Assembly (NCBI GenBank): GCA_963716175.1
Contig: OY970296.1
Location: forward strand, 3,533,684 to 3,597,683
Direction: 5' to 3'
DNA length: 64,000 bases
DNA from: an uncultured Armatimonadetes bacterium
GTDB taxonomy: Bacteria > Armatimonadota > Hebobacteria > Hebobacterales > Hebobacteraceae
Shown: positions 550 to 54,974 of the stretch, one piece after another
Numbering within the stretch: position 1 is the stretch's first letter
Layout: each line of letters begins with the position of its first letter
Notes under the pieces: model-generated
Databases searched by the model: none
What the model was told of the DNA's origin: nothing
The model's input: only the letters and a program-made list of their open reading frames with translations
Program-made: the position numbers and the translations under genes

Positions 550-559
550 GATGATGCCG

Positions 560-590: not shown

Positions 591-591
591 G

Positions 592-619: not shown

Positions 620-629
620 GGCCAGGCCA

Positions 630-1106: not shown

Positions 1107-1126
1107 GTGCGTGCTCGCGGGCCTGG

Positions 1127-1156
1127 TTGCGCTGACCCGGCTGCACCCACTATAAT
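1127..1156 (+). promoter_or_regulatory. putative promoter TTGCGC-N18-TATAAT upstream of glycosyltransferase gene
   Basis: TATAAT 1151-1156; weak -35. Confidence 0.35.
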
Positions 1157-1191
1157 AGCCGCCGGTCGTCATCGCACACGCGGGGGGAAAC

Positions 1192-37490: not shown

Positions 37491-38180
37491 CTAGGGCAGC
37501 CGATGTTCACCAGACCGCGCTGCCCCGAGTGCCTTGAGGCCTGATTGGGCGGCGGCATTGGCTGGGTCCAAGGCCAGCGCACGCCGGAATGCGCGCTCCG
37601 CCCCCGGCGCGTCGTCTGCCTTCCAGAGCGCGAAGCCAAGGAGCGCCTGTATTCGCGGCGCCTGGGGCACCAGCCTCGCGGCCTCTTCCGCGGACCGCCG
37701 CGCCTGGGCCGCCTGTCCCAGGCTCAGTAGCTGGTACGCTAACATGGCATGGGCTATGCCCTCGCGCGGGTCCAGCTCAATGGACCTGCGCAGCGACTGC
37801 ACCGCGCCTCGACTATCGCCCATCGCTCCCAGCACATCGCCCAGTTCGAGCGCGGCGCCGGGATCATCGGGTTTCGTCTCCGCCACCGCTCTCAGCTCGC
37901 GCGCCGCGGCCGATGTATTGCTTTCCGCGAGCAGGTGCATCGCCAGTTCCCGCCGCGCGCGGGGGTTGTCGGGGGACAGGGAGAGCGCTTGCTCGACTTT
38001 CGCGCGAGCGGCAGCACCTTCGGCTTTTGCGCCCAGCTTCTGCGCCTCATCCACTAACCGGTCGGATTGCGCCAGGCCCCGGACGCGCGGAAGCTCTGCC
38101 AGCGCCAGTCCCAGGGCCAGCACCGCGCCGAGGCTCGCCAGTACGATGAGTATGCGGAGAGTGGTATTCCGCGCTTCCAT
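37491..38180 (-). CDS. membrane-anchored TPR-repeat protein
   Basis: N-terminal TM then ~5 TPR repeats. Confidence 0.75.
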   Translation of the reverse strand: MEARNTTLRILIVLASLGAVLALGLALAELPRVRGLAQSDRLVDEAQKLGAKAEGAAARAKVEQALSLSPDNPRARRELAMHLLAESNTSAAARELRAVAETKPDDPGAALELGDVLGAMGDSRGAVQSLRRSIELDPREGIAHAMLAYQLLSLGQAAQARRSAEEAARLVPQAPRIQALLGFALWKADDAPGAERAFRRALALDPANAAAQSGLKALGAARSGEHRLP

Positions 38181-38184
38181 GTCT

Positions 38185-39933
38185 CTACCCGGCCGCCCGG
38201 CGAGCCCTGCCCGAGCGGACTACCTTGAAGGTTCCGGACGTCTTCTGCCATGCCACCAGGTAGTCGCCTGGGAGCAGCACCGACCAGGCCATTTCCCGGG
38301 GCGAGATGTCTCCATCTTGCCGCACCACACGCACCGGAACCGGCCGGCCCCTCCGCAGTGCCACTGCTTGTTCGAGGCTATTGCGGAAGACTTGTGCTCC
38401 CAGGTGGGTCTCTGGCAGATCCTGTACGTACAGGGCCAGATGGCCGCTTGGCCCTTGCAGCCGGTCTGCCAGATCAGCGCTGGCAGTAACGATCCGGGCC
38501 GCGGTTCGTCTCGCTTCCCTCCAGGGCAAGATGTACCAGGAGGTCAGACCAGCGGCGACGAGGAGGACGACCGCGATCCCAGCTCCGCGCTGCCAGCCCA
38601 TCTGGCGCGCACTGCACAGATCGCCGAAGAGCCACACCAGGCCAATCGTTGGCAAGTAAGCGAACCGGCTGTGTTCCAAGTCTGGCGCGGCTGCCGCCAG
38701 CGTCCACGCTGGCACCAGCATGAACAGGAAGAAGCCCGACCACAGCATGAGCCGACGACCGGGCACTCCTCCGAGTTGGCGCATCATCCACAGCAGGCCC
38801 AGTGCCATCAGCACCACAGTGACGGGCAGCCAGGGTCCACCCGCGAGCCGGAACAGGTCCTGATGAACCGGGAAGAAGAAGGCGACGATATGCCGAAAGG
38901 GCGTCCATGGCAAGACGGTGTCGTGGGCAGTCAGGTGGAGAGGGTATCCGCCCAGTCCGCCCCTGACGTGAATGCGCCACGCCAGATACCCGCAGAGCAC
39001 GATCGAGTAGCATCCCCCGACCATCACTGTGCGCCGCCAGCGGCCTTCCGGCTGCCCCAGAGCGGCCCAGAGCAGGGCCGCCGCTGGCAGCGCCAGGGCC
39101 GCCTCCTTGCTCAACAGGGCAAGCAGGAAGCTGCCCAGCGCGGCGGCCATGGCGAGCCACTGCCAGGCCCGCGCGGAGGAGGTGAGATAGGCCTGCAGGC
39201 TGAGCAGGGACAGGAGACAGAAGCAGGTGCACAGCAGGTCGGCGCTGCAGGAGGCCCAGACCACGGTTTCCACGTGAAGCGGATGCAACGCGAACAGCAT
39301 TCCCGCCAGGCCCGCCCCCAGTCTGCTGCCGGTCACACGACTCGCCAGCAGGTAGACCAGGACCGAGTTGGCCGCGTGCAGAGAGACGCTGGCGAGATGA
39401 TAGCCCATGGGCGCCCCTGCCCAGGCCTTCACGCCGATCCACCATAGCAGCATGGACACCGGCCGAGAGAAGTACTCCAGCACCTGACTGGTTGCTGCTT
39501 CGCGTAGGCCTCCGGCGGACTGCGCCACCCAGAGCAACCCGAAGTCGTCCGAGAGGAGGCCGACCTTCAGGCTTGGGAGATACACCAGGATGGCGGCCGC
39601 TATCACGGCAGTGGCAGGAGCCAGGCTCCTGCCCAATATGGCAGGCGCCGCCCGCGTCTCCGGCGTCTTGCTCGCGGCCGCAGGCGAGAAACCCAAGAGC
39701 CCGCGCCCGGCCACGGCCACCACTACCAGGCAGAGGGCGGCGACATTCGCGCTCCATTCCGCTGTCGGGAGGGCCGGCAGAAACCACCACCGCCACGCCA
39801 GGGCGGCCACCGCGATGCCGGCCGCCGCATTCACCAGGCGACGATCTCGCCTCCCGGCGGCCGCGGCGAGCCGGCCGGTCTTGCTCGTCCTCTTCCCGCG
39901 GGCGCGAGGTGGGCGCTTGAGGCCGTGGTGCAC
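38185..39933 (-). CDS. GT-C-fold membrane glycosyltransferase, TMTC/PMT-like (DUF1736-like YHL.N..LH motif)
   Basis: start trimmed to GTG just after the flavoprotein stop; YHLASVSLHAANSVLVYLL, HPLHVETV motifs; TPR partner encoded separately downstream. Confidence 0.65.
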   Translation of the reverse strand: MHHGLKRPPRARGKRTSKTGRLAAAAGRRDRRLVNAAAGIAVAALAWRWWFLPALPTAEWSANVAALCLVVVAVAGRGLLGFSPAAASKTPETRAAPAILGRSLAPATAVIAAAILVYLPSLKVGLLSDDFGLLWVAQSAGGLREAATSQVLEYFSRPVSMLLWWIGVKAWAGAPMGYHLASVSLHAANSVLVYLLASRVTGSRLGAGLAGMLFALHPLHVETVVWASCSADLLCTCFCLLSLLSLQAYLTSSARAWQWLAMAAALGSFLLALLSKEAALALPAAALLWAALGQPEGRWRRTVMVGGCYSIVLCGYLAWRIHVRGGLGGYPLHLTAHDTVLPWTPFRHIVAFFFPVHQDLFRLAGGPWLPVTVVLMALGLLWMMRQLGGVPGRRLMLWSGFFLFMLVPAWTLAAAAPDLEHSRFAYLPTIGLVWLFGDLCSARQMGWQRGAGIAVVLLVAAGLTSWYILPWREARRTAARIVTASADLADRLQGPSGHLALYVQDLPETHLGAQVFRNSLEQAVALRRGRPVPVRVVRQDGDISPREMAWSVLLPGDYLVAWQKTSGTFKVVRSGRARRAAG

Positions 39934-39935
39934 TT

Positions 39936-40523
39936 TCAGTCCCCCAGGCTGAGCTGCGCCAACCGCCGCCCCAGATCGCGCGCGGCCTCTAGCGCTCGCG
40001 CGTCTTGCAGAACATCGCCCGGGTCGCGTCCCACCGCACATACCTGCCAGCCCGCGTCGGAGGGGGAACCGGCCAGCATCATCCCGTGGTTGAGGGCGCA
40101 GGCGAGAACATGCGTGGCCGCCACCTCCTGGCCGCCCCAACGTGCGGCCCCGACCGTCACCACGGCGATCACCTTGCCCGACAGCTTGCGTCCCATCCAC
40201 CACAGCGGCCGCATGCGGTCGAAGACCGCTTTCAACTGCGCTGTCATGCTGTTGAGATAGACTGGCGTGCCGAACACGATGGCATCGGCCCAACCGAGCA
40301 GGGGATAGAGCTCCGTCATGTCATCCTGTTGGACGCAGCGGCCGGAGGGATCGCGCACACAAGAGGCGCAGGCGGTGCAGGGCATGATGGTTCTTCCCGC
40401 GACCGTGAACAGGGTGGCGGCCGCGCCCTCCTCCCGCGCCGCCTCCAGCACCCGCTCCATCAACAGCTCCGTATTCCCGCCCTTCCGCGGGCTGCCGACG
40501 AGGCCGAGGATATGCTGCATCAT
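39936..40523 (-). CDS. iron-sulfur flavoprotein (Isf) / NADPH-dependent FMN reductase family
   Basis: SPRKGGNT flavodoxin-like N-term and compact CX2CX2CX7C cluster motif. Confidence 0.8.
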   Translation of the reverse strand: MMQHILGLVGSPRKGGNTELLMERVLEAAREEGAAATLFTVAGRTIMPCTACASCVRDPSGRCVQQDDMTELYPLLGWADAIVFGTPVYLNSMTAQLKAVFDRMRPLWWMGRKLSGKVIAVVTVGAARWGGQEVAATHVLACALNHGMMLAGSPSDAGWQVCAVGRDPGDVLQDARALEAARDLGRRLAQLSLGD

Positions 40524-40672: not shown

Positions 40673-42253
40673 ATGGCGAATCGGCTAACGAACAACATGC
40701 TTCGCCGCCTCGCCTCCGAGATCGGCGTCGTCCGCAAGGACCACGGCGGCCGGCTCCGCGTCTGCCTGGTCTACCCGAACACCTACTTCGTGGGCATGTC
40801 CAGCCTGGGCTTGCAGGCCGTCTACCATCTCTTCAACGCCCGCCCCAATGTGGTCTGCGAGCGGGCCTTCTTGCCTGACCCCGCGGACTTGGCCGACCTG
40901 GTCCGCACCGGCGCCCCGCTAGTCTCCTATGAGTCACAGACTCCTCTCCAGCAGTTCGATGCCATCGCCTTCTCCATCTCCTATGAACTCGATTACATGA
41001 ATCTCGCGCGGGTGCTGCGGCTAGCGAAGCTGCCAGTGATGGCCCACGAACGGGACGACCGCCATCCCCTGGTTGTGGCCGGAGGCGCGGCCGTTTCCAT
41101 CAACCCGGAGCCGCTCGCCGACCTGGTGGATTTGTTCGTGGTAGGAGAGGCGGAGCCGGTTTGCGATCGGTTGCTGGCGGCGCTCGCCGGCCGCCTGTCG
41201 AGAGAAGAGCTGCTGGCAGGGCTGCCGGACCTGCCAGGGGTACACGTTCCGGCCCGAGGAAGCTTGCATGAGGGCTTGGCGAGGAGAGCCGTCCAACGCC
41301 AATATGCCCGGCCTTTGGATGCCTGGCCGACTCACTCGCGCCTCCTCACGCCGGACACGGAGTTCGGCAACCTATTCCTGGTTGAGGCCGCCCGCGGCTG
41401 CGGGCGGGGCTGCAAGTTCTGCGTGACGCCGGCCTGCTACTGGCCGTTGCGGTGGCGCTCGGCGGGGAAGATCATGGAATCAGTGGAGGCCGGTCTGGCC
41501 CACCGCGATGCGGTGGGCCTGGTCGGTGCTGCTGTCTCCGACCACCCCGAGATCGAGGAGATCGCGCGCCGCATCCGAGGGGCGGGCGCCAGACTGTCGG
41601 TCTCCTCCTTGCGCGCGGACACGGTGTCTCCAGCGCTCATCGGAGTTCTGGCCGGGAGCGGCGCCCGCAGCATCACCGTGGCGCCGGAGGCGGGGAGCGA
41701 CCGGCTGCGCGCGGCAATCGGCAAGGGTATCTCGGAGCAGGAGATCATCAAGGCGCTGCGCACGGCCGCCGACGGCGGCATCAGGGAGGCAAAGCTCTAT
41801 TTCATGGTGGGCTTGCCCGGGGAAGGGGAGGAGGACGTCGCCGCCATACCCGCCCTGGTCCGTAAGTGCCTCACGGCCGCCCACCTCGGCGCGCTGACCG
41901 TCGCCGTCGGTGCATTCGTGCCCAAACCCCACACCCCGTACGAACGTGAGCCCATGCTGTGGGTCGCCGAGCTCTGGCGCCGGCTGCGCGCCGTCCGCGA
42001 GGAGCTGCGGGGCGAACCGCGGGTCAAGTTGGCGCTGGAGAGCGCCAACTGGTCCTACCTGGAGGGGGCGCTCAGTCGGGGTGACAGGCGCCTGGGGCCG
42101 GTTATCGCTGCCGCGGAAGCGAGGGGAGGCAACCTGGCGGCCTGGCGCACCGCCTTCCGAGAGGCCGGCCTGAGCGCCGAGCAGTTCGCCGGTCGCGCCC
42201 CTGAAGGTGAGCTGCCCTGGGGGTTCATCCTCCCAGACGGGAGCAGTTTCTGA
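40673..42253 (+). CDS. B12-binding-domain radical SAM protein (TIGR03960-like uncharacterised family)
   Basis: LVYPNTYFVGMSSLGLQ N-term, CGRGCKFC, 526 aa. Confidence 0.75.
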   Translation: MANRLTNNMLRRLASEIGVVRKDHGGRLRVCLVYPNTYFVGMSSLGLQAVYHLFNARPNVVCERAFLPDPADLADLVRTGAPLVSYESQTPLQQFDAIAFSISYELDYMNLARVLRLAKLPVMAHERDDRHPLVVAGGAAVSINPEPLADLVDLFVVGEAEPVCDRLLAALAGRLSREELLAGLPDLPGVHVPARGSLHEGLARRAVQRQYARPLDAWPTHSRLLTPDTEFGNLFLVEAARGCGRGCKFCVTPACYWPLRWRSAGKIMESVEAGLAHRDAVGLVGAAVSDHPEIEEIARRIRGAGARLSVSSLRADTVSPALIGVLAGSGARSITVAPEAGSDRLRAAIGKGISEQEIIKALRTAADGGIREAKLYFMVGLPGEGEEDVAAIPALVRKCLTAAHLGALTVAVGAFVPKPHTPYEREPMLWVAELWRRLRAVREELRGEPRVKLALESANWSYLEGALSRGDRRLGPVIAAAEARGGNLAAWRTAFREAGLSAEQFAGRAPEGELPWGFILPDGSSF

Positions 42254-42394: not shown

Positions 42395-42423
42395 TTGACT
42401 TGACCTGGCCGCCGTGCTAGCAT
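42395..42423 (+). promoter_or_regulatory. putative promoter TTGACT-N17-TAGCAT upstream of giant gene
   Basis: hexamers read from sequence. Confidence 0.4.
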
Positions 42424-42432
42424 GGCGCTCGG

Positions 42433-42522
42433 ATGAGGACTTGGCCGGCGGCGGAGAGAACGCGGCCGGCGAGGGTTTTGGACTGGCCCTCCGCCGGCAA
42501 AGCAGGAGGCGACTCGACATGA
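42433..42522 (+). other. 29-codon upstream ORF (MRTWPAAERTRPARVLDWPSAGKAGGDST) ending in ATGA overlap with main start
   Basis: in-frame ATG..TGA; stop overlaps main ATG 42519; could be coincidental. Confidence 0.25.
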
Positions 42523-45500
42523 ACGCAGCGCTCCGGTTCGGCATGCGGCGGGGGTTGATCTTTGGGCTCAGTGGTCTGCTCCTTGCCGTTCTCTGGGCCT
42601 CTTCCCCGGCGCTCGCGGCGCTGGGGAAGAAAGAGCCGACCCCGGAGCAGAAGAAGTGGTGGAAGACCTTCTCGAATGAGGTCAAGTCGGCCAATATCGA
42701 GCGCCACGTCGTCAACCTGAGCAACTCAGGTCCTCGCCTGGCTGGCTATCCCGGGGCCGAGGTGGCGGCCGAGTATATCGCGAAGGAAGTGCAGGCCCTG
42801 GGCCTGAAGGATGCCAGCCACGGCGGCCTCGATCCCAAGCTCCCCTACCGCGAAGCTTACTGGGTGACCGTTCCCTGGGTCTGGGGGCAGCCCACGGTGG
42901 AGGTGCTGGTCGGCGGCAAAGCCGTGGCGAGCTATCCGGTCTATCCCCTCTGGCCGAACCTGGTCCGGACCTCCCAATTGCCGGAAGGGGGCAAGACCTA
43001 CCGCTTGATAGCTGGCGGTGATGGAAGTCTGGCCGAGTTCAGCGGGAAAGACGTCGAGGACACGGCCGTTCTGCTGCAGTTCTCCGGTGGCACCACGTGG
43101 CTGAACGCCCCTCGCCTGGGCGCCCGCGCGGTGATCTTCATCGAGCCGGAGGCGCTCGAGCGGGGCGAGGCCGAGGCCAAGTTCCTGCGCATCCCCATCA
43201 ACATCCCTCGCTACTGGATCTCCCGCAGCGATGCCAACCGCTTGATCGCCAGGCTGAAGTCCCAGCCGGAGGTGATGATCCGGATTCAGTGCCACATGAC
43301 CTGGGAGAGAAAGCAGGCCTGGAATATCGTGGCCGAGATCCCGGGCACCGACAAAGAGCTGAAGAAGCAGGCGGTCTATCTCACCGCCTACTACGACACC
43401 ATGTCCATGGTGCCCCAGCTCTCGCCAGGGGCCGAGAGCACCGCGGGGGCGGCCAGCCTGCTCGAGCTGACCAGGATTCTGGCCAGGTATCCCCCCAAAC
43501 GCACGGTGCGGGTGATCTTCAACGGGGCCCATTTCCTGGGTCTGGCTGGGGTTCGCAACTACGTCGCCACGCACCTGAAGGAGCTGACCGACGGCCTGCC
43601 GGTGAGGGAGCGGACGCGCTTCTTGGGGTTGATCCCCTACACCCACACCGTGATGAAGAAGATGCCGATCAACCTCTTCCTGGCTTTCGACCTGTCCACT
43701 CACCACAGCCGGGTTGGCCTCTTCTACAAGGGGTTCTTCTACGACCAGCGCGAGGATATGGATATCAGCCGCCAGTTCTCTGATTTCGCCCGCACCCTGA
43801 GAGAGAATGCGGGGCTGATGGCGGATTGGGAGACGACCAAGGGCTTCACTGACGCCGAGGCCGGGTTCGCGGATGGCGTGAACCCGATCTACGGCAAGCC
43901 CTGGCGCACCTTCATCTTCGGGAAGATCGCGCTGGACAATGAGCCCATCACTCTGGGTGGGGGACGGGGAGCAGGCTTCGTCACCACCGATGACTCCCGG
44001 CCCCTGTTGGACACCCCCTTCGACACCGTTGACCAGGTGAACTTCAAGAACCTGTACACGCAGAGCTGCTTCCTTGCCGCCACCCTGTGGGACGTCGTGA
44101 ACGACCCCAAGATGCCGGTGGACAAGGACCCCAAGTTCGCGCGGATGACGCTCTCCGGCGGCTTCGCCGAGCTGACGGCGAAGGCCCTGGCCTTCGATCC
44201 CACCAGGAGCGTGGTGGCCGACAAAGTGGTGTCAGGCACCATGGTGGTGGCTCGCATGTCGGACTCCACCCTGATGGGCACGCGCGGTGACCTGGTGGAG
44301 ATCGTTGACGACCGGGGCCGCAGCCACTTCTGGGGTTACCCCACCATCAACGCTTACGGCTGGCGCAAGCCCAGCTACATCGAGGCCTACCACACCAACC
44401 CGCAGACCGGCGACATTGACTACGCTCCCGACTGGGGCCCCATGGTCAGCCGCAGCAACCCCGATCCCACCCAGTTCTTCATCACCTCCGGCAAGAAAGA
44501 ATGCACCATCGTCATCTTCGACTGCGTCCCCATTGCCCTCTATGACCTGGTTGACCCGCAGAGCCTGACCACGCTCCGCTATATCAAGGTCTACGACGGC
44601 CAGACCGATGCCGAGCCCAGACGCTACGGGCTGACCGTTCCCCATCCCGAGCCGCTGCGCGGCCATGTGGAGGACGTGGCCCTGGTGTTTGCGGACAAGG
44701 GCCAGCGGGTGAAGGTGATGATGGGCCTGGGGGGCGGCTCGATCCGCATGCTGTTGCTGAACGCGGCGACCATCAGCCCCAAGTACGAGAGCGGGCTGGG
44801 GTATCTCGCGGACAAGCCCTTCGCGCTCTCCCACACCCCGCTGCGGGTGACACAGGACATGTGGAAGCTGGACGACCTGCGGATGAAGAAGCTGGAGGGC
44901 TTCCGCATCGTGAATGAGGTGGTGCGATCCCTGCACACCACCGCCGGGACGCTGCTGGCGAAAGCGCAGAAGGCGCTGGACCGCAAAGACTACGAGCTGG
45001 CCGATGCCGAGGCGCGAGCGGCCTGGGGCTATGAGGCGCGGGCCTATCCCGCCGTGCTCTCCACTATGAACGACGTGGTGAAGGGCGTGCTCTTCTACCT
45101 CGCGCTGATGCTGCCGTTCGCCTTTTTCGTGGAGCGCCTGGTGTTCGCTTTCCCCAACCTGCGCACCCAGATCTTCGGCATCGTCATCATCTTCGCGGTG
45201 ATCTGCCTGATCTTCAGCTTCATCCATCCCGCCTTCGAGATCACCAAGAACCCCTGGATCGTGCCGCTGGCCTTCATTATGGTGGCCCTCAGCGTGTTGG
45301 TGATCACGCTGGTGACGATGAAGTTCGAGACTCAGCTCAAGATGCTCCAGATGAAAGTCTCCGGGGTGCACCGCGCCGACATCGGGCGCATGAGCGTGGC
45401 CGCCGCGGCCTTCGCCCTGGGGATCAGCAACATGCGCAAGCGCCGCGCCCGCACCGTGTTCACCTGCCTCACCCTGATCCTGCTCACCTTCACCGTGCTC

Positions 45501-47156
45501 TCCTTCACCTCGGTGAAGACCGCCACTCGCTACAACGAGCGCCGCGCCAAGGGCAAGCCCACCTACCAGGGCCTGCTGGTGCGCAACGCCATGTGGGAGC
45601 CGCTGGAGGAGTCAGCCTATCGGGTGCTGGATGACGAGTTCGGCCGCAGCCGGGCGGTGGCGCCTCGCGCCTGGTTCTTCACCTCCAAGACCGAGGAGCA
45701 GTCCTTCCTGCTCGTGAAGAGCCCGGCCACCGGGACCACCTACGACGCCCGCGCAGTCACCGGGCTGACCCCGGCCGAAACCGAGGTCACCGGCCTCAAC
45801 CACGCCCTGCTACCTGGCGGGCGCTGGTTCCGGCCCGGCGACGTGCATGCCGCCATCATCTCCGCCCGCATGGCGGACGCCTTCCACCTTCTGCCGAGCG
45901 ATGCGGGGAAGGTGAAGATTGACCTGGGCGGCGTGCCGTATGACCTGATCGGCATCCTCGACGCCAGCAAGGCGAAGCGCATCCTGGATCTGGACCAGGA
46001 ACCGCTCACCCCGGTGGACTGGATTCAGATGCAGCGCATGGCGCGGCAGGGCGGCGGCCAGCAGCAGCAGGGCCAGAAGTCAGGGTTCCAGGAGTACCTG
46101 CACCTCTCGCCCGACCAGGTGGTGTTCGTGCCCTTCAACACCGCCATCAACCTGGGGGCGGAGGTCGAGTCCGTGGCGGTGAGCTTCATCACCCCGCAGG
46201 AGGTGAAGCAGACCCTCCGCGCCCTCATGCCCAGGCTCGGCTTCAACCTCTACGCCGGCACCGGCACTGAGATCCGCAAGTGGAGCGCCATCGGGCGCAC
46301 CTCCATCTCCGGGATGAGCGATATCCTCATCCCCATCCTGATCGCGGCCCTGATCGTGCTCAACACCATGCTGGGCGCGGTCTACGAGCGGGTGCGAGAG
46401 ATTCACATCTTCAGCTCCATCGGGCTCGCCCCCAGCCACATCGCCACCCTGTTCATGGCCGAGTCCTTCGTCTACGCCATCCTGGGCGCCATCTTCGGCT
46501 ACCTCATCGGCCAGGGTATGGCCAAGATCATCACCGCCCTGCACCTTCTGCCCGGCCTCTACCTCAACTACTCGTCCGTGTCGGCGGTGGCCTCCACCAC
46601 CGTGGTCATCGGCGTGGTGCTGCTGTCCACGGTGTATCCGGCTCGCAAGGCCTCCGAGGTAGCCACGCCAGCGCTCGATCGCCGGTGGCAGGTGCCGGAG
46701 CCAGTTGGCGATTCCTGGGACATCCCCCTGCCCTTCGCGGTCACTGGCGAACAGGCCAACGCGCTCATCCGGTTCATGGTGGAGTGGTTCGAGGCCTATG
46801 AGGAGTATTCCATCGGGGATTTCGTCACCCAGGATGTCACCAACTTCGAGGAGAAGGCGGATTACGGCACTGCCTACGTGATTCAGCTCATGGCCTGGGT
46901 GGCGCCCTTCGACCTGGGCGTCAGCCAGAAGGTGCAGCTGCGGACCGTGCCCACCGACATGGAGGACGTGTTCGAGATCATGCTCCACCTGGAGCGTGTG
47001 AGCGGAGACGTCTCATCCTGGCGGCGGGTGAATCGCCGCTTCCTCAACACCTTGCGCAAGCAATTCCTGATCTGGCGGACGCTGCGAGCGGAAGAGCGAG
47101 ACCGCTATCTGGGCCTGACCCCGGCCGCCGGCGCCGCCGCGGAGGCCGCCTCCTGA
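42519..47156 (+). CDS. giant (~1545 aa) envelope protein: signal peptide, M28/PA-domain peptidase-like ectodomain with substituted metal ligands, central unknown region, C-terminal FtsX/MacB-type 4-TM permease module
   Basis: AGGAGG SD 6 nt upstream; M28-like blocks (NIVAEIPG, AYYDTM, GAESTAGAAS); FtsX signature region ...ERVREIHIFSSIGLAPS... Confidence 0.75.
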   Translation: MNAALRFGMRRGLIFGLSGLLLAVLWASSPALAALGKKEPTPEQKKWWKTFSNEVKSANIERHVVNLSNSGPRLAGYPGAEVAAEYIAKEVQALGLKDASHGGLDPKLPYREAYWVTVPWVWGQPTVEVLVGGKAVASYPVYPLWPNLVRTSQLPEGGKTYRLIAGGDGSLAEFSGKDVEDTAVLLQFSGGTTWLNAPRLGARAVIFIEPEALERGEAEAKFLRIPINIPRYWISRSDANRLIARLKSQPEVMIRIQCHMTWERKQAWNIVAEIPGTDKELKKQAVYLTAYYDTMSMVPQLSPGAESTAGAASLLELTRILARYPPKRTVRVIFNGAHFLGLAGVRNYVATHLKELTDGLPVRERTRFLGLIPYTHTVMKKMPINLFLAFDLSTHHSRVGLFYKGFFYDQREDMDISRQFSDFARTLRENAGLMADWETTKGFTDAEAGFADGVNPIYGKPWRTFIFGKIALDNEPITLGGGRGAGFVTTDDSRPLLDTPFDTVDQVNFKNLYTQSCFLAATLWDVVNDPKMPVDKDPKFARMTLSGGFAELTAKALAFDPTRSVVADKVVSGTMVVARMSDSTLMGTRGDLVEIVDDRGRSHFWGYPTINAYGWRKPSYIEAYHTNPQTGDIDYAPDWGPMVSRSNPDPTQFFITSGKKECTIVIFDCVPIALYDLVDPQSLTTLRYIKVYDGQTDAEPRRYGLTVPHPEPLRGHVEDVALVFADKGQRVKVMMGLGGGSIRMLLLNAATISPKYESGLGYLADKPFALSHTPLRVTQDMWKLDDLRMKKLEGFRIVNEVVRSLHTTAGTLLAKAQKALDRKDYELADAEARAAWGYEARAYPAVLSTMNDVVKGVLFYLALMLPFAFFVERLVFAFPNLRTQIFGIVIIFAVICLIFSFIHPAFEITKNPWIVPLAFIMVALSVLVITLVTMKFETQLKMLQMKVSGVHRADIGRMSVAAAAFALGISNMRKRRARTVFTCLTLILLTFTVLSFTSVKTATRYNERRAKGKPTYQGLLVRNAMWEPLEESAYRVLDDEFGRSRAVAPRAWFFTSKTEEQSFLLVKSPATGTTYDARAVTGLTPAETEVTGLNHALLPGGRWFRPGDVHAAIISARMADAFHLLPSDAGKVKIDLGGVPYDLIGILDASKAKRILDLDQEPLTPVDWIQMQRMARQGGGQQQQGQKSGFQEYLHLSPDQVVFVPFNTAINLGAEVESVAVSFITPQEVKQTLRALMPRLGFNLYAGTGTEIRKWSAIGRTSISGMSDILIPILIAALIVLNTMLGAVYERVREIHIFSSIGLAPSHIATLFMAESFVYAILGAIFGYLIGQGMAKIITALHLLPGLYLNYSSVSAVASTTVVIGVVLLSTVYPARKASEVATPALDRRWQVPEPVGDSWDIPLPFAVTGEQANALIRFMVEWFEAYEEYSIGDFVTQDVTNFEEKADYGTAYVIQLMAWVAPFDLGVSQKVQLRTVPTDMEDVFEIMLHLERVSGDVSSWRRVNRRFLNTLRKQFLIWRTLRAEERDRYLGLTPAAGAAAEAAS

Positions 47157-47197: not shown

Positions 47198-49261
47198 GTG
47201 ACCAGGTTGGCTGAGGAACTGGAGGAGAAACCGGAAGCCGCGCCATCGGGAGCAGACGAGGGCGAGTATTACATGGAGCGCCGGCCGGAGCTGGAACCGA
47301 CAGAGTTCCGCGAAGGCTTCACCATGAAGACGTTCCTGGGCGCTCTCTTCATCGGGGTCATCATGATGCCGGGAGCCATCTACCTGGCGCTCATGATGGG
47401 CCAGAGCATGGGGTCCGCGGGCCAGTGGACCACCATCATCCTGATCACCGAGGTTGCCCGCCGCTCCTTCACCAAGGTGTCCCGCCAGGAGCTGTACATG
47501 ATCTACTACATGGCGGGCAGCCTGCTGTCCGCCGGCGGGACGCTGGCCGGAGGCGCCTTCGCCTATTTCGTGTGGAACGCCTACCTGATCAACTCCACCG
47601 CGGCGCAGAACTTCGGCATTGCCAAGCTCATCCCGCGCTGGGTGGCGCCGCCGCTGGGGTCTTCCGCCTACATCCAGCGCACCTTCCTGCACCATGACTG
47701 GACCATTCCCATCGTGCTGACCGTGCTGGGGAGTATCTTCGGGCGGGCGCAGTGGATCGGCATGGGCTACTTCCTGTTCCGCACCACCTCCGATGTGGAG
47801 CGACTGCCATTCCCCATGGCGCCCATCGCCGCTCAGGGGGCCACGGCGCTGGCCGAGGTCTCGGAGGAGAAGGAGTCCTGGCGCTGGCCGGTGTTCAGCG
47901 TGGCCACCATGATCGGGCTGGTATACGGCTTCTTCTACGTCGCCATCCCCGTGATCACCGGCGGCTTCCTCGCCGACCCGCTGAAGCTCATCCCCATCCC
48001 CTTCATTGACTTCGTGCAGAACGCAGAAGATGCGCTGCCCACCAACCGGATCGCGATCGCCACCGATCTGGGGCCCATCTTCTGGGGATTCGTGCTGCCC
48101 TTCCCCATCGTCGTCGGCGGCTTCATCACCTCCATGTTCACCAACTTCCTGTTCTCGCCCCTGCTCTACCATTTCACCTACAGCCCCGTCCTGGGCAAGT
48201 CCACCCTGTTCCCGCAGTGGTCCAAGGGCATGAACCTGATCCAGAGCCAGATGATCCTCGGCTTCGATTTCTACATGAGCTTCGGCATCGGGATCTCGCT
48301 TGCCATCGCCGCCATCGGCCTCTACTCGGTCCTCAGCACCCTGTTGAAAGCCCGGGTGGCTCGCGCCCAGGGCGCGGCCACCAGAGGCTACCGCGATGTC
48401 CCAGCCGGCAGAGGCGACTTCCCCATCTGGCTGGCGCTGGTGGCCTGGGCCTTGCCCGCGGTCTACTACGTGATCCTGGGGCACTATCTGGTGCCCAGGT
48501 TCCCCGTGTATTGGCTAATCTTCTTCGCTTTCGTGTGGACCCCGGTGATCTCCTATGTATCGGCGCGCATGAATGGCCTCCGGGGGTGGGGCATTGACAT
48601 CCCCTACGTGCGGCCTGCGGTGTTCATCCTCAGCGGGTACAAGGGGGTGGACATCTGGTTCGCGCCCATCAACCAGGACGACCACGGTTGGGCTGCTTCC
48701 CAGTTCCGCGAGGTGGAGCTGACCGGCACCAGGATGGTCAGCGTGGTGAAGGCGGAGGCCTTCCTGCTGGTGCTGATGCTGTTCTGCAGCTTCGTCTACT
48801 GGTCATTCTTCTGGAAGACCAGCCAGATCCCATCCTCCCAGTACCCGTACGCCCAGATGTTCTGGCCCCTCAACGCCTTCTGGCAATGCCTCTGGGCCAC
48901 CGCCACTATGCCGCACAAGGCCGGGGAGGCCACCTTCTTGCTCAAAGCCGTCAAGCCCTCGATCATCGGCTATACCGGCGCCGGCGCCATGGCCCTCTAC
49001 TGGATCATGAGCGCCTTCCGGGTGCCCACCCTGTGGTATTACGGGCTGATCGGAGGCTTCAGCGACACCACCTGGGCCATCCCCAGCTTCATCGGCGCCA
49101 TGCTGGGGCGTTATTACTTCGCCCGCCGCTTCGGCAAGAACCGCTGGCGCCAGTACACGCCGGTGCTGGCCGCCGGCTATGCCTGCGGAGTGGGCCTGAT
49201 CGGGATGGTGTCCATCGGCCTGACCATTATCTTCAAGGCGGTGCGGTCGCTGCCGTTCTGA
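47198..49261 (+). CDS. polytopic membrane protein, distant OPT-family (oligopeptide transporter)-like
   Basis: 687 aa, ~16 TM; N-terminal ...FTMKTFLGALFIGVIMMPGAIYLALMMG resembles OPT N-terminus; assignment tentative. Confidence 0.55.
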   Translation: MTRLAEELEEKPEAAPSGADEGEYYMERRPELEPTEFREGFTMKTFLGALFIGVIMMPGAIYLALMMGQSMGSAGQWTTIILITEVARRSFTKVSRQELYMIYYMAGSLLSAGGTLAGGAFAYFVWNAYLINSTAAQNFGIAKLIPRWVAPPLGSSAYIQRTFLHHDWTIPIVLTVLGSIFGRAQWIGMGYFLFRTTSDVERLPFPMAPIAAQGATALAEVSEEKESWRWPVFSVATMIGLVYGFFYVAIPVITGGFLADPLKLIPIPFIDFVQNAEDALPTNRIAIATDLGPIFWGFVLPFPIVVGGFITSMFTNFLFSPLLYHFTYSPVLGKSTLFPQWSKGMNLIQSQMILGFDFYMSFGIGISLAIAAIGLYSVLSTLLKARVARAQGAATRGYRDVPAGRGDFPIWLALVAWALPAVYYVILGHYLVPRFPVYWLIFFAFVWTPVISYVSARMNGLRGWGIDIPYVRPAVFILSGYKGVDIWFAPINQDDHGWAASQFREVELTGTRMVSVVKAEAFLLVLMLFCSFVYWSFFWKTSQIPSSQYPYAQMFWPLNAFWQCLWATATMPHKAGEATFLLKAVKPSIIGYTGAGAMALYWIMSAFRVPTLWYYGLIGGFSDTTWAIPSFIGAMLGRYYFARRFGKNRWRQYTPVLAAGYACGVGLIGMVSIGLTIIFKAVRSLPF

Positions 49262-49276: not shown

Positions 49277-50245
49277 TTGCGTCAGACGGTCAATGGTGGA
49301 GGCGGTTTGACAGTACAAGTAGATTACGATACGACAGCCATCGGATGGCACGGAGTCTCGGTCCGGGTTCCGGCGGACTGGACTCTGGGTGCGGTAGGGG
49401 GTGATCGCAAGTCCGGCTACCTGCGGGTAGATGACGAGCGCATGCCGCGGCTCCAGCTGAAATGGTCGCAGGGCCACATCAACCTGGAGAAGAAGCGAAG
49501 CGAATACGCCAACCGGCTGACCACGGGCAAACGCAAGCGGCCCACCGGGCTCACCGTGGACCTGGAGGCCCGGGTAATCAGCGGGCGCTCGAAGCCGAAG
49601 AAGGAGCTGGCCACCTTCGCCTGGCGGGGCCCGCAGTGCGGGATGGGGGTGCTGTGGAACTGCCAGGTATGCAACCGGGCCCTCATCGCGCAGGTGAGCT
49701 GGCAGCAGCCGGAGCGCCTGCACGAGGTGGCCCAGCAGGTGCTGGGGTCGCTGGAAGATCACGCCATCGGCGGCTGGCAGTTGTGGGGCGTAGATAGCTT
49801 CGCCTTCCTCGCGCCAGAGGGTTATGACCTGGCGAAGTGGAAGCGAATGACGCGCTATCTCGAGCTGACCTTGACGACCAAGAGGGAGGCCACCCTCCGC
49901 GCGGTGCGGTGGGGAATGGTGGCGCTGGTGCTGGGCGGGCGGACGCTGATGGAGTGGTACCAGGACGAGAACAGGCGGCGGCGCGATGTGCGGTGGCAGG
50001 CGCAGGAGATGGAGGTGAAGGGCCACCAGGCGGTGGCAGCCTGGGGTGAGCGCAGACGATTCGCAGGGAGCGTGAGAAAGGGCCTGGCCAAGCTGCTGGG
50101 GCGCAAGCCGGCGGTGGATTTCGCCGCTTGCGCCTGGCACTGCCCGGACTCGAACCGGATCTACCTGGCGGAGACGATTTACGCCGAAGGGCAGGATGTG
50201 CTGAAAGGAGTGGTGGACTCCATCCTCTGCCATGAGGAGGCGTGA
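49277..50245 (+). CDS. hypothetical protein with Cys-rich motifs (C.x7.C.x2.C ; C.x3.C)
   Basis: 322 aa; alternative TTG start 49307 with GGTGGAGG SD. Confidence 0.55.
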   Translation: MRQTVNGGGGLTVQVDYDTTAIGWHGVSVRVPADWTLGAVGGDRKSGYLRVDDERMPRLQLKWSQGHINLEKKRSEYANRLTTGKRKRPTGLTVDLEARVISGRSKPKKELATFAWRGPQCGMGVLWNCQVCNRALIAQVSWQQPERLHEVAQQVLGSLEDHAIGGWQLWGVDSFAFLAPEGYDLAKWKRMTRYLELTLTTKREATLRAVRWGMVALVLGGRTLMEWYQDENRRRRDVRWQAQEMEVKGHQAVAAWGERRRFAGSVRKGLAKLLGRKPAVDFAACAWHCPDSNRIYLAETIYAEGQDVLKGVVDSILCHEEA

Positions 50246-50640
50246 GCATGCGCCGGCGGCGCAGGCCACGGCTCACGGCCGAGCAGGTGCTGCAGTCCCG
50301 GCCTCTGCGGAACCCGAGGCTGAGGACCGAGAAGATCGAGGGGGGAGGCCTGCGCCTCCACGTGCCCCGGCGCAGCGAATGGTGGGCCCGGGTGCTGGCG
50401 GTGATCTTTCCGATTCCGAAGGAGCGCAGGCTAGAGCTAGATGCGGCGGGGGAGGAGGTGTGGGAGATGTGCGACGGCGAGCACACCCTGCGCCAGATGA
50501 TTGCGCTCTTTCAGGAGCGACATAAGCTGACCCGGGCGGAAGCGGAATGGTCGCTGCGGACTTATCTCCGCGATCTGGGTAAGAGGAACTTGGTGGCCTT
50601 CGCCATCGAGAAGCAGCCGGAGAAGAGGCAGCAGGGCTGA
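50242..50640 (+). CDS. PqqD-family protein (RiPP-recognition-element-like fold)
   Basis: VWEMCDG.HTL..MI..F....L....EW.L..YL..L....L pattern; overlaps upstream stop. Confidence 0.6.
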   Translation: MSMRRRRRPRLTAEQVLQSRPLRNPRLRTEKIEGGGLRLHVPRRSEWWARVLAVIFPIPKERRLELDAAGEEVWEMCDGEHTLRQMIALFQERHKLTRAEAEWSLRTYLRDLGKRNLVAFAIEKQPEKRQQG

Positions 50641-50654: not shown

Positions 50655-51353
50655 ATGGCAAACGCAGGGCAAGTGGTTCCAGGGGGCCGCATTCAGATCG
50701 AGAGTCAGATCGTCCTTCCCTGGTCGCGCACTCTCCAAATGACCAGGGAGAATATCTTCGTCCGGTTCGGCCGGTCTGTGATCACCGCCTCCGGCATCTT
50801 CCTCGGCATTGCCTTCATGAGCGCGGTGCTGTTCGGCGCCGCTGCCGGCCGGGTGCAGCAGCAGCTGGCCACCTCGCAGTTGGGCTTGCTGGGCACTGAG
50901 AGCACCAGCGGCGAGACGCAGGCCAGGACGATCTGGCTGGTGGGCATGTCCCTGCTGGTGGCCACCGTCGGGATCGTCAACTCCATGCTGATGTCGGTCA
51001 CCGAGCGCTACAAGGAAATCGGCACCATGAAGTGCCTGGGGGCGCTGGACCGCTTCATCGTGCGCCTCTTCATCCTGGAGGCGGCGCTGCTGGGCGTCCT
51101 GGGATCTATCGTCGGGGCGCTGGTGGGCACCGGCGCCATGACCTTGGTCTACACCTATCGCATGGGCTGGGGCCACGCCCTCTCGAGCTGGCACGAGACC
51201 GCGCTGCGGCTCGGTGGTTGGTCCATACCGCTCTGGTTGGCGATTGTCCTCGGCATCGTCGTCGGTGGGCTGCTGTCCGTCTGCGCCGCTCTCTATCCCG
51301 CCTGGCGGGCCGCCAAGATGCCCCCGGCCGCGGCGCTGCGCTCGGAGTTCTGA
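50655..51353 (+). CDS. FtsX-like ABC permease, minimal 4-TM form without large extracytoplasmic loop
   Basis: 232 aa; ...SVTERYKEIGTMKCLGA... FtsX-type core. Confidence 0.7.
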   Translation: MANAGQVVPGGRIQIESQIVLPWSRTLQMTRENIFVRFGRSVITASGIFLGIAFMSAVLFGAAAGRVQQQLATSQLGLLGTESTSGETQARTIWLVGMSLLVATVGIVNSMLMSVTERYKEIGTMKCLGALDRFIVRLFILEAALLGVLGSIVGALVGTGAMTLVYTYRMGWGHALSSWHETALRLGGWSIPLWLAIVLGIVVGGLLSVCAALYPAWRAAKMPPAAALRSEF

Positions 51354-51500: not shown

Positions 51501-52244
51501 ATGTCTGTCTACGAGTATATTGTGCGTACCAAGGACCTGATGAAGGTCTACACGATGGGGGATACGGAGGTGCGCGCGGTGGATGGCGTTGCCCTCGACA
51601 TCAGGCGGGGCGAGTATATCTCCATCATGGGGCCTTCGGGATCGGGGAAATCCACGCTCTTCAACATGATCGGAGGGCTGGACAAGCCCAGCGGCGGCAC
51701 GGTCTTCATTGACGAGACGGATATGGCGCAGCTCACCGCCTCCGAGCTCGCCTACCTGCGCTGCCGCAAGATCGGCTATATCTTCCAGACCTTCAACCTG
51801 ATCCCGGTGATGACCGCGCTGGAGAACGTCACCCTGCCCATGATCTTCGCCGGCCTCTCCACCGACAATGCTCTGGACAAGGGAGTCGAGCTGCTCAAGA
51901 CTGTGGGCCTGGGCGATCGGCGAGATCATAAGCCCACGGAGCTTTCCGGCGGGCAGCAGCAGCGGGTGGCCATCGCCCGCGCCCTGGCCAACGACCCCGC
52001 CATCATCCTGGCGGACGAGCCCACGGGCAACCTCGACCTGCGCACCGGCAAAGAGATCATCGCCCTGCTCAAGCAGATGAACGAGGCGAAGAAGGTCACC
52101 GTCATCTCTGCGACCCACGATCTGAAGATGATTGACGTCTCGGACCGGGTGGTGTGGATTCGGGACGGCAAGATCGAGCGCATTCAGGAGCGCGCCGACA
52201 TTGACGTGAAGGTCGGCGTGATGGAAGGCGAAGAGGTAGGATAG
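51501..52244 (+). CDS. ABC transporter ATP-binding protein (MacB/LolD/FtsE-like)
   Basis: Walker [10 protein letters not shown], signature [15 protein letters not shown], Walker [12 protein letters not shown]. Confidence 0.9.
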
Positions 52245-52317: not shown

Positions 52318-52385
52318 TTCCGGTTTGCACGCGGACGCAGCGGCAGGCCACTGCGGCGCGGCGCACACCCTGGATGGCGCTTTCC

Positions 52386-52414
52386 TTGACACCGGAAAAG
52401 GAAACTCTTATGAT
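52386..52414 (+). promoter_or_regulatory. promoter TTGACA-N17-TATGAT; predicted TSS coincides with first ATG (leaderless)
   Basis: TTGACA 52386-91, TATGAT 52409-14, ATG at 52422. Confidence 0.5.
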
Positions 52415-52421
52415 CTCCTGG

Positions 52422-53066
52422 ATGGGCATGAGAGGAATGGATAGCCGCCGCGGTTACAGCAGCTTCCCCACCACCTTTCTCATCTTCTCCCTCCTCCTGC
52501 TGGTGCTGGCTGGCGGATTCGCGGTGGGCCGGCTCGTGGTTGGGCGGGCCTACGTGAAGTCGGCCGGGCAGTTCGAGAAGTGGCCCGGGCCTAAGGCCGA
52601 GGAAGCGACCGCTGCTCCTGCGGAGGGAGAGCTCCCGTCAGGGCAGGGCTATGTCCCGGCACCGTCTCGGCAGGCCGCGGAGTCCCAGTCGCCGGGGAAA
52701 CCGGAGGCGGCTCCGGGTGAGCAGACCGAGCAGGCCAAGCCGGAGGCGCCGGCGGCGGCCAGCGCACCCGCGCCCTCACCCGCGCCCCAGGCCTTGCCGG
52801 CGCCCGCGGAGAGCCCGCAGCCGGCGGAGGAGAAGGAGAGAAGGTACGCCATCCAGGTGGGAGTGTTCGAGGGGGAGGAGGGGGCGCAGAAGGTGGCGGA
52901 TGATCTGGCGCGGGCCGGCTATCCTGCCCAAGTGGAGAGCACCCGAGGCGAGCAGGGCAATGTCTATCGGGTACTCACTGGGCGCTACCGCACGGAGTAC
53001 GCCGCCCGCAAGGCTATGGATCAGCTCAGGCAGGAGGGGTTCTCGGGGTTCCTGGTCGAGCGCTGA
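52422..53066 (+). CDS. SPOR-domain (peptidoglycan-binding, division-site) membrane protein
   Basis: N-terminal TM, Pro/Ala/Glu-rich linker, C-terminal SPOR (YAIQVGVF...A..V...L...G....V). Confidence 0.7.
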   Translation: MGMRGMDSRRGYSSFPTTFLIFSLLLLVLAGGFAVGRLVVGRAYVKSAGQFEKWPGPKAEEATAAPAEGELPSGQGYVPAPSRQAAESQSPGKPEAAPGEQTEQAKPEAPAAASAPAPSPAPQALPAPAESPQPAEEKERRYAIQVGVFEGEEGAQKVADDLARAGYPAQVESTRGEQGNVYRVLTGRYRTEYAARKAMDQLRQEGFSGFLVER

Positions 53067-53095
53067 GGACGGACCTCGGTTCGGGAGAAGGTACG

Positions 53096-53710
53096 GTGAA
53101 GGAAGGCTCAGAGGATAATCGGACTGAAGATCAGGAGGGGGAGGCGGAGGAACCGGAGTTGCTGCCGGCGGAGGAACTGGTCTCGACCGAAGAAGAGGAG
53201 AGCAGAGGATCCGAAGTCGAGGTGCTGCAGAAAGAGCTGGCGCTGCTGGAGGGCCAGCTTCAGGACCTGCGGGACCGATACTTGCGAGCGGTGGCCAATC
53301 TGGATAATTCGCGCAAGCGGGCCCGGCGGGAGATGAGAGAGGTGCAGCAGCGGGCCGCGGCCAGCGTGCTGCTGGATCTGCTCACGGTGGTGGACAGCTT
53401 CGAGCGCGCCTTGGGGACGGCGAGAGACTTGGGGGCGGTCCCTGCCGAGACCAGGGCTGTGTACGATGGCCTCACCTTGATCTACCGGCAGTTAGTGGAT
53501 CTGCTGGGCCGGCGAGGGGTCAGACCCATCTCCGCGGTGGGCGCGCGATTCGACCCCAGCTTTCACGAGGCGGTTGCCCAGGTCCCAGCAGGCCCCGAGC
53601 AGGAGGAGGGGCTGGTGGCGCTGGAGGTGCAAAAGGGCTACCTGTATGGCGATCAGGTGCTGCGGCCCAGCAAGGTCGGGGTGACGGTGCACACCGCGTC
53701 CAGGAGCTAG
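53096..53710 (+). CDS. grpE: nucleotide exchange factor GrpE
   Basis: coiled-coil N-term, RKRA..E motif, C-terminal beta domain. Confidence 0.85.
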
Positions 53711-53919
53711 CATCGTGGTCGGTCTGGCAAGAGGGATGGGGTGAGGGATGTCGAAAGGACCGAGGCCGGGAGCGAGGTAAGGCCGTGCCAGGGCCGAGAC
53801 GCAGACGAAGAGGCAGCGATATACCCGAAGCCGCGGCGCAGCCGCCCGGCGCGGAATCTACTCAGGCCGGGGAGCCCGAGGTGGCCGAGGCTCTGCCGGC
53901 GGGAGGGGAAGAGAATCCC

Positions 53920-54974
53920 ATGTCTAGCAGCCAGCGTCCAGGTGCTGCCGTTATCCGGGTGATAGGCGTAGGCGGGGCGGGGGCCAACGCGGTAGACCGG
54001 ATGATCGCCGTGGGCCTCCAGGGCGTGGACTTCGTGGCCGCCAACACTGATCTCCAGGCGCTGTCACGATCTCAGGCCAAGTCCAAGCTTCAGCTCGGCG
54101 TCGCGGTCACCAATGGGCTGGGGGCCGGGGGCGATCCGGAGGTGGGGCGCGGGCGGCCGAGGAGAGCCGCGCTGAGATCAAAGGCCAGCTGGACGGGGCC
54201 GACATGGTGTTCATCACCGCCGGCATGGGCGGGGGCACGGGCACCGGCGGGGCGCCGATCGTGGCCGAGATCAGCCGGGAGGTGGGAGCGCTCACCGTCG
54301 CCGTGGTGACCAAGCCCTTCGGCTTCGAGCGAGGCCGCCGCCAGAGCATCGCCGAGGAGGGACTGGATAACCTGCGAACCAAGGTGGACACCCTGATCAC
54401 GGTCCCGAACGACCGCTTGCTCGGTGTGGTGCAGAAGAAGGTGACGCTGCTGGAGGCATTCCGCCTGGCCGATGAAGTGCTGCGGGAAGGCGTGCAGGGC
54501 ATCTCCGACCTCATCACCATCCCCGGGCTGATCAATCTCGATTTCGCCGACGTCAGAACCGTGATGGCTGATGCCGGGACCGCGCTGATGGGGATCGGCG
54601 TCGGGACCGGCGAGACCCGGGCCACCGATGCCGCCCAGGCCGCCATCTCCAGCCCCCTCCTGGAGACCTCCATTGACGGCGCCACCCGCATCCTCTTCAA
54701 TGTCACCGGCGGCAGCGATGTTTCGCTCTCCGAAGTGGAGGAGGCGGCCCAGGTCATCCGCTCGGCCTCGGAGTCTCCGGACACCAATGTGCTCTTCGGC
54801 GTAGTGGTAGGGGAGGAGCCCGAGGACGAGATTCGCATCACCGTTCTCGCCACCGGCTTCGATCGCAGCCGCCGCGCCAGCAGGCCGGCCGAGCACGCGC
54901 AGGCCAATCTGCCGGCCGTGGCGCCGGTTCCCGACGCCGACCTGGAGGTCCCCACCTTCCTACGGAATCGCTGA
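53920..54974 (+). CDS. ftsZ: cell division protein FtsZ, reading frame broken by 1-nt deletion at ~54150 (G/C run)
   Basis: N-part in frame 1 (…[14 protein letters not shown]…[12 protein letters not shown]), continues in frame 0 ([33 protein letters not shown]…). Confidence 0.8.

Follow-up and report, generated by a model that had tools for sequence, protein, structure and literature searches.

A PqqD-family protein and its tandem PsbP/Mog1-like partner as a possible cytoplasmic accessory pair of an FtsX-type ABC system in Armatimonadota

Leader peptides of RiPPs, which are peptides made by the ribosome and modified after translation, bind to RiPP recognition elements (RREs) in a cleft between strand beta-3 and helix alpha-3, and where a PqqD-like gene has genes for enzymes and transporters close by, this usually points to a RiPP cluster (PMC7470986). 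RRE domains are also related to winged helix-turn-helix DNA-binding domains, and regulators of this type are common false positives in RRE searches (PMC7470986). Here we describe a window of 64,000 nucleotides from an uncultured Armatimonadetes bacterium (contig OY970296.1, positions 3,533,684 to 3,597,683), in which a PqqD-family gene lies immediately behind the gene of a cysteine-rich protein, labelled X in this work. All coordinates of this stretch are given in whole-window numbering. An original prediction, made from the sequence, had described PqqD as coupled to a partner of no recognisable family and implied that this partner was a new RiPP tailoring enzyme. The reading that we favour, with a probability of roughly 55%, takes X and PqqD not for a RiPP tailoring pair but for paired cytoplasmic accessory proteins of an ATP-binding cassette (ABC) envelope system of the MacB/FtsX type (type VII).

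Both open reading frames (ORFs), which are on the + strand, are real. The maximal ORF of X, from TTG 49277 to the stop codon at 50243-50245, would encode the 322 amino acids originally proposed. However, TTG 49307 sits 7 nucleotides behind a GGAGG motif and opens an ORF of 312 amino acids; because of this spacing, and since the public database entry for X (P0001) has the same length, TTG 49307 is the likely translation start. Alignments of homologues to the 312-residue protein start near residue 8. The most likely start of PqqD is ATG 50248, which lies 2 nucleotides past the X stop codon and behind GAGGAGG and gives 130 amino acids, as in database entry P0220. An alternative start at GTG 50242 would overlap X by 4 nucleotides, so that by the sequence the two genes are tightly coupled whichever start applies, as had been predicted. 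No natural fusion of both proteins was found: the eight longest representatives of the X family carry no PqqD domain, and P0095 is X carrying an insertion.

The PqqD protein matched PF05402 with 34.6 bits and an E-value of 2.5e-8 (gathering cut-off 23.4), and this domain was present in all of the 120 homologues listed among the 137 found. Its score with the lasso PqqD model of NCBIfam was 22 bits, below the cut-off of 80. The AlphaFold2 model calculated from 32 homologues (mean predicted local distance difference test, pLDDT, of 81) has strands at residues 18-21, 26-29, 35-40 and 59-64 and helices at residues 66-74, 81-92 and 96-112, and an extra helix (45-53, WWARVLAVI) is inserted between strands 35-40 and 59-64. 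The predicted structure has the three-strand sheet, the three-helix winged-helix fold and the beta-3/alpha-3 cleft. Its top match by Foldseek was TbiB1 with leader peptide (TM-score of 0.78 by target); further matches were TfuB1, the PqqD of M. extorquens, the RRE domains of TruD/LynD, TigE and ThcOx. As judged from this model, PqqD is a complete and genuine RRE fold whose nearest structural matches are leader-bound lasso RREs and PqqD itself. The original assignment to this family is thus upheld, and the match is not a spurious low-complexity similarity, which had been named as the way in which it could fail.

Conservation in the 32 sequences concentrates on both walls of the predicted cleft. 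Around strand 59-64 the residues R60, E63, L64 and D65 are invariant, and in helix 96-112 the same holds for E98, A99, E100, W101, S102, L103, R104, L107, D109 and L110, to which R113, one residue beyond the modelled helix, has to be added. The cleft is nearly invariant and therefore argues for a conserved, putative ligand. Like TbiB1, TfuB1 and PqqD, the protein belongs to PF05402, has the same strand-and-three-helix fold and is encoded by a small stand-alone gene coupled to that of its partner. Unlike the RREs of RiPP and pyrroloquinoline quinone (PQQ) biosynthesis, it has as partner neither a radical SAM protein nor a YcaO nor a B2 transglutaminase-like protease, the search for a precursor gene gave none, and it shows an N-terminal extension of about 17 residues, the inserted helix and an FtsX/ABC membrane operon as context.

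The kinship of RREs with winged helix-turn-helix domains, together with the known false positives (PMC7470986) and the fact that the cassette itself showed no regulator gene of its own, would fit a winged-helix regulator that controls transcription of the operon with X as its sensor partner. This is very improbable: the top structural matches are peptide-binding RREs and not DNA-binding proteins, the PF05402 score is above threshold, the conserved residues lie in the peptide cleft, and the PqqD gene stands in the middle of an operon, translationally coupled to its neighbours.

Protein X had no match in Pfam, NCBIfam or PADLOC, none of 33 members of its family had a relevant Pfam match even at E<=1, and a sequence search against the PDB returned noise only. 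The claim that the partner of PqqD belongs to no recognisable family is consequently confirmed at this level. The AlphaFold2 model of X, built on 33 homologues down to 25% identity, reached a pLDDT of 90.2 and a predicted TM-score of 0.85, and it consists of two similar sheet-plus-helix modules. Compared with the PDB by Foldseek, it matched PsbP from many species (E-values of 1.3e-4 to 1e-3, probability 1.0, TM-scores by target of 0.5-0.6), and the other matches were Tsi3, DcrB and Mog1; across all four kinds the E-values ranged from 1.3e-4 to 5e-2, the probabilities from 0.9 to 1.0 and the TM-scores by target from 0.44 to 0.61, all by this single method. An hhalign comparison of the N-terminal half (1-152) with the C-terminal half (153-312) revealed an internal repeat with a probability of 84% and an E-value of 7e-6 over 133 columns, which pairs W-N-C119 with W-H-C279 and D151-H152 with C308-H309. 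On the strength of the model, X is soluble and combines two PsbP/Mog1-like domains into a pseudo-dimer. Identification of X as a member of a well-known non-RiPP family had been stated as the outcome that would overturn the original prediction; no such family was matched in sequence, but the fold predicted is PsbP/Mog1-like.

To our knowledge, the PsbP/Mog1-like fold occurs only in binding and chaperone proteins and not in catalysts, and X as modelled looks non-enzymatic, with no recognisable active site. Each half of the protein shares the fold of PsbP, Mog1, DcrB and Tsi3 (Foldseek probability of about 1.0 to PsbP). Unlike these, X does not belong by sequence to their Pfam families, joins two domains covalently in tandem, carries a Cys3His set, is apparently cytoplasmic and is paired with an RRE. 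By hydropathy, transmembrane-like or signal-like segments were absent from both X and PqqD, and X appears to be cytoplasmic.

Among the 33 sequences, cysteines C119, C279 and C308 are invariant, and conservation reaches at least 90% at C122, H152 and H309. Both motifs of the original prediction, C-x7-C-x2-C and C-x3-C, are present, but the first cysteine of each (C111 and C275, respectively) is variable. The C308-H309 motif persists in relatives at 24-27% identity. Since the most distant member, P0099, has lost C122 and H152 and of this set keeps only C119, C279, C308 and H309, we infer that these four residues form one putative Cys3His zinc site tying together both domains and the C-terminus. 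The pattern looks like a structural Cys3His site and not like a catalytic or Fe-S motif.

The gene pair is embedded in six consecutive genes of the + strand, from 42.4 to 52.2 kb, which encode in this order the giant permease (a duplicated FtsX protein whose PA-M28 ectodomain is degenerate), the OPT-like transporter, X, PqqD, the small FtsX permease and the LolD/MacB-like ATPase (Table 1). The combination of an FtsX four-transmembrane permease domain with its cognate ABC ATPase, as expected of a type VII system, is present. However, no protein of the operon reached the NCBIfam equivalog cut-off for LolCDE, MacB or FtsEX. The ATPase scored 235 bits for LolD against a cut-off of 308, 202 for FtsE against 265 and 226 for MacB, and all matches of the small FtsX to lolCE and FtsX models were below cut-off. 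As in MacB, FtsX and LolCDE, the permeases have four transmembrane segments per unit and go with a LolD/MacB/FtsE-like ATPase, and the large extracytoplasmic domains of the giant permease are like those of mechanotransmission machines. Unlike in these systems, one permease has eight transmembrane segments and a degenerate PA-M28 module and the other is almost devoid of ectodomain, the cytoplasmic X and PqqD are added together with an OPT-like or DUF6785 membrane partner, and the equivalog cut-offs are not reached.

The giant permease shows by hydropathy eight transmembrane segments in a 1+3+1+3 pattern, and from its sequence it is a duplicated FtsX/MacB-type membrane domain. A sigma-70-like promoter match at 42395-42423 (TTGACT, 17-nucleotide spacer, TAGCAT, with TG extension) lies between the upstream radical SAM gene and the cassette; the rest of the promoter and terminator scan was uninformative. 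Because this match overlaps the start of the maximal ORF, the true start is probably ATG 42519 (MNAALRF...), in agreement with the orthologue matches, whose starting points in the maximal ORF are residues 31-83. The first ectodomain, of about 820 residues, holds a PA plus M28-like module (about 43300-44100, residues about 300-560), which matches the eukaryotic, inactive M28-like protein Nicalin weakly (E-value 1.4e-3). The PF04389 match covers only positions 1-80 of the 193 of the model. When aligned with the Bacillus aminopeptidase YwaD (6hc6), four of the five M28 metal ligands and the catalytic glutamate could be located, and all were substituted (H to Y, D to S, EE to HF and H to D), with the same substitutions in 8 orthologues. 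Because the metal and catalytic residues are replaced here and in the orthologues, this "peptidase" is very probably a binding module. Like the inactive M28 domains of Nicalin and the transferrin-receptor type, the ectodomain has lost these residues; unlike them it comes from a bacterium, forms part of an FtsX permease and has only remote sequence similarity, and it looks like a bacterial pseudo-peptidase. A relationship of X with the C-terminal cytoplasmic domain of the giant permease was considered, and hhalign gave no link.

The OPT-like protein of the window had no Pfam match (none to OPT PF03169 at E<=0.1), and its profile search found nothing among PDB sequences. PF03169 was matched by 3 of 25 aligned relatives, with a best E-value of 7.2e-8, and some homologues are named "peptide transporter" by NCBI, which suggests a distant relative of the OPT oligopeptide transporters. 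A role of the cassette in anti-phage defence was rejected: X, PqqD and the OPT-like protein had no PADLOC match, and the only PADLOC matches of the small FtsX were to two CARF-fusion models, in their LolE-type membrane region.

Table 1. Coordinates of the gene pair, its conserved elements and the neighbouring genes in the window
Feature	Coordinates	Strand	Description
X	49307..50245	+	312-aa soluble protein, two predicted tandem PsbP/Mog1-like domains
C119-x2-C122 knuckle of X	49661..49672	+	strand end and following turn, domain 1 (model secondary structure)
C279 of X	50141..50143	+	domain-2 counterpart of C119, W-x-C at strand end
C308-H309 of X	50228..50233	+	C-terminal "CH" motif; would join C119 and C279 in the putative Cys3His zinc site
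PqqD-family protein	50248..50640	+	130 aa, predicted PqqD/RRE fold, PF05402
RRE strand 59-64 (RRLELD)	50422..50439	+	equated with canonical beta-3, one wall of the leader-binding cleft
RRE helix 96-112	50533..50583	+	equated with canonical alpha-3, opposite cleft wall; most conserved stretch of PqqD
Giant permease	42414..47156	+	maximal ORF 1580 aa; PF02687 FtsX 53.5 bits, PF04389 M28 37.1 bits
OPT-like protein	47198..49261	+	687 aa, polytopic, at least 9 distinct transmembrane-like segments (hydropathy)
Small FtsX-type permease	50655..51353	+	232 aa, four transmembrane segments, about 30 residues between the first and second; PF02687 74.6 bits
ABC ATPase	51501..52244	+	LolD/MacB/FtsE type; PF00005 119.7 bits
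B12-binding radical SAM protein	40673..42253	+	TIGR03960 family, 328 bits; Radical_SAM_N2 plus Radical_SAM
SPOR-domain protein and GrpE	52374..53710	+	PF05036 SPOR 56.7 bits; FtsZ further downstream

A word-indexed search retrieved 99 homologues of X, none of them named, and the few with an organism given were Armatimonadota. By profile search 1753 representatives of clusters at 50% identity were found at E<=1e-3, of which 906 were retained at E<=1e-10 and 261 at E<=1e-30. The six genes were matched in the same order at nine loci from metagenome-assembled genomes (MAGs) of Armatimonadota/"Hebobacteria" and at the more distant locus L002, and the incomplete Armatimonadota loci agree with this order as far as they extend. 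Identity of the ATPase to that of the window was 88-96% in the Armatimonadota loci, 58% in the degraded L017 and 64-79% in distant lineages. When nine lineages with less than 50% identity to each other in X were tallied, PqqD lay within two genes of X in eight, an ABC ATPase accompanied X in seven and an intact FtsX gene in six, L019 having an FtsX fragment only. Considering 1753 representatives of X and a neighbouring PqqD gene in eight of nine lineages, the pairing of the two genes is more than chance.

Lineages with other arrangements share 24-42% identity in X, and among those at 24-27% X and PqqD stay with FtsX/ABC in changed gene orders. The full cassette is found in L002 and L026, and L001 and L024 have only X-PqqD-FtsX-ABC, a minimal module with 26% identity in X. 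The order is ABC-X-DUF6785/DUF6784 membrane protein-PqqD in L019 and giant-OPT-like-DUF6785-ABC-FtsX-ABC-X-PqqD in L025. Overall, the genes of X and PqqD are adjacent or overlapping in nearly all sampled lineages, and an FtsX permease and a LolD/MacB-like ATPase accompany them despite the shuffled order; the Armatimonadota version of the module is enlarged by the OPT-like transporter and the giant duplicated FtsX permease.

Some of these loci showed particular features. The DUF6785 plus DUF6784 membrane proteins beside X, PqqD and ABC (4874-6973 of L019 and 2795-4870 of L025) have about 690 residues, and that of L025 stands side by side with an OPT-like paralogue; a kinship of both families was considered, and neither BLASTP nor hhalign gave a link. 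In L019 a large NPCBM plus C-type-lectin protein (positions 2-3126) ends exactly at the start of a 31-residue ORF, whose product is an FtsX permease's C-terminal end (…YPALIAARMRPVEALRVEE). This remainder could be due to a frameshift, be a remnant, or reflect an ectodomain swapped for carbohydrate-binding modules. The single FtsX of the four-gene module in L001 (11620-12690) has an acidic, coiled-coil-like insert of about 190 residues, seen in the sequence, between its first and second transmembrane segments, where the small FtsX of the window has about 30; from the protein length, the same insert is presumed in L024 (4333-5514).

Chaperones of the Eag type (DUF1795) are of the same fold class as X, form homodimers and bind the transmembrane helices of type VI secretion system (T6SS) effectors. 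In a close variant of the favoured reading, X would be an assembly chaperone of this kind, in which the tandem PsbP-like protein shields hydrophobic helices and the RRE grips the adjoining extended segment. Its client would be either a hydrophobic cargo or one of the membrane subunits in the nascent state (an FtsX, OPT-like or DUF6785 protein), and the pair would act transiently in biogenesis or loading and not as a stable regulatory subunit. X has indeed two PsbP/Mog1-like domains in one chain, and contacts with the client or the membrane could be made by a basic segment at residues 251-270, modelled with low confidence, and by the hydrophobic helix that is inserted in PqqD. X also travels with large polytopic membrane proteins of several families, but not always, as L021 and L023 have no large membrane-protein gene next to it. 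The analogy comes from the fold class, no Eag structure was among the 50 Foldseek matches listed for X, and T6SS context is absent; we consider this variant rather unlikely.

The accessory pair of an FtsX-type system that we favour could work as follows. The RRE would clamp an extended, itself conserved peptide segment; a partner subunit might offer it as a tail or loop, or the OPT-like transporter might bring it in as a peptide. X, putatively zinc-stapled across both domains, would be a docking scaffold or chaperone and would present the peptide-RRE complex to the ATPase and permease. Cytoplasmic peptide binding might thereby be coupled to ATP-driven conformational work of the FtsX ectodomains. 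The binding partners in this scheme, and the coupling to ATPase-driven movement of the ectodomains, are what we infer beyond fold, conservation and genomic linkage. The N-terminal tail of the small FtsX was considered as the RRE ligand and not retained: its conserved QI-x-LPW-x-KA segment looks like the usual elbow helix before the first transmembrane segment, and the proposal stays speculative. In its most specific form, the proposal makes the RRE and its previously undescribed, zinc-stapled tandem PsbP-like partner a conserved subunit that senses or clamps peptides for a housekeeping ABC envelope machine of the FtsX type; it is tentative, and we hold it at somewhat less than even odds.

Several observations weigh against this reading. 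In L021, where the order is PilN-PilO-lipoprotein-like gene-X-PqqD, and in L022 of the same lineage, the pair adjoins PilN/PilO and no FtsX or ABC gene lies within 10 kb. In L023, X occurs with no PqqD gene within 17 kb and is followed by the gene of an HExxH protein. The zinc site of X, in turn, is deduced from conservation and the repeat alignment only, and we know of no MacB-type system that needs cytoplasmic peptide-binding partners. The HExxH protein of L023 (8969-10579) has 536 amino acids, an N-terminal hydrophobic segment and a HEYSH motif, and it had no Pfam match.

A different explanation would be a new RRE-dependent RiPP pathway. PqqD would then bind the leader of some precursor that was overlooked or has its gene elsewhere, X would act as a novel zinc-dependent enzyme for tailoring or for cleaving the leader, and the FtsX and ABC proteins would export the product. 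The RRE is genuine and its peptide cleft conserved, an exporter-type ABC ATPase is present, which scored 214.7 bits with the darobactin exporter DarD although below cut-off, and the next gene upstream of the cassette encodes a B12-binding radical SAM protein of the TIGR03960 family; enzymes and transporters in the neighbourhood of a PqqD-like gene are also the usual sign of a RiPP cluster (PMC7470986). However, the radical SAM gene was found again only in L015. It was absent within 2.5-3.2 kb upstream of the giant gene in L002, L008, L010, L012 and L016, and in L026 the gene at that side encodes a PALP-domain protein. Because its adjacency is not conserved, the radical SAM protein was rejected as the true partner of PqqD. 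No other tailoring enzyme (YcaO, lasso B2/C) was found conserved next to the RRE in the sampled loci either. A lasso B1/B2 pair does not apply, X being PsbP-like and an asparagine-synthetase-like gene being absent from the cassette, and the M28-like domain of the giant permease, with its metal and catalytic positions substituted, does not qualify as an active leader peptidase.

When, in search of a precursor, ORFs of at least 15 amino acids were collected from the cassette gaps of the window and seven related loci, none was shared, which agrees with the original remark that no precursor ORF lay nearby. The operon is highly conserved, as the identity of its ATPase indicates, and in Armatimonadota it lies mostly beside the SPOR and GrpE genes, unlike accessory biosynthetic gene clusters. 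RiPP leaders and their cognate RREs usually co-vary, whereas the cleft of this RRE is nearly invariant. With the PsbP/Mog1-like binding fold of X, its structural-looking Cys3His set and the FtsX/ABC operon around it, the implied role of X as a new RiPP tailoring enzyme does not hold, and the RiPP pathway as a whole is improbable.

The SPOR gene was in synteny at 10 loci and the GrpE gene at 9, and both were missing downstream in L002, L024, L025 and L026; they are probably outside the machine. Farther downstream, the FtsZ gene of the window (53785-54974) is split over two frames, with the shift near 54150-54170. The break is an apparent 1-nucleotide indel in a G/C-rich run and may stem from a real frameshift or from an error in sequencing or assembly. 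Upstream of the cassette, two overlapping ORFs of opposite strands, of 637 (37534-39447, +) and 702 amino acids (38185-40293, -), had no Pfam match at E<=1e-5.

In the literature searched, nothing was found that joins PqqD or RREs with FtsX, MacB or PsbP, nor Armatimonadota with FtsX, and DUF6785 was unmentioned. Two RRE survey papers, among them PMC7470986, do not describe an FtsX/ABC operon context. The RRE of this locus is itself of an already known kind, and what is new is the fold of its partner and the operon in which it stands. In addition, X represents a sizeable family that has no Pfam model and is now given a confident predicted fold.

If the favoured reading is true, these results would give the RRE fold a physiological role outside RiPP and PQQ biosynthesis, as a leader-binding fold recruited to a housekeeping task, and no cytoplasmic accessory pair of a type VII ABC system would have been described before X and PqqD. 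RRE and PqqD domains serve as a class-independent marker of RiPP gene clusters, and a widespread, conserved RRE belonging to an ABC machine would then be a systematic false positive for genome miners. Armatimonadota have few cultured members, and the pair would offer a way into an uncharacterised envelope system of six genes, apparently conserved core equipment of the sampled MAGs of this phylum.

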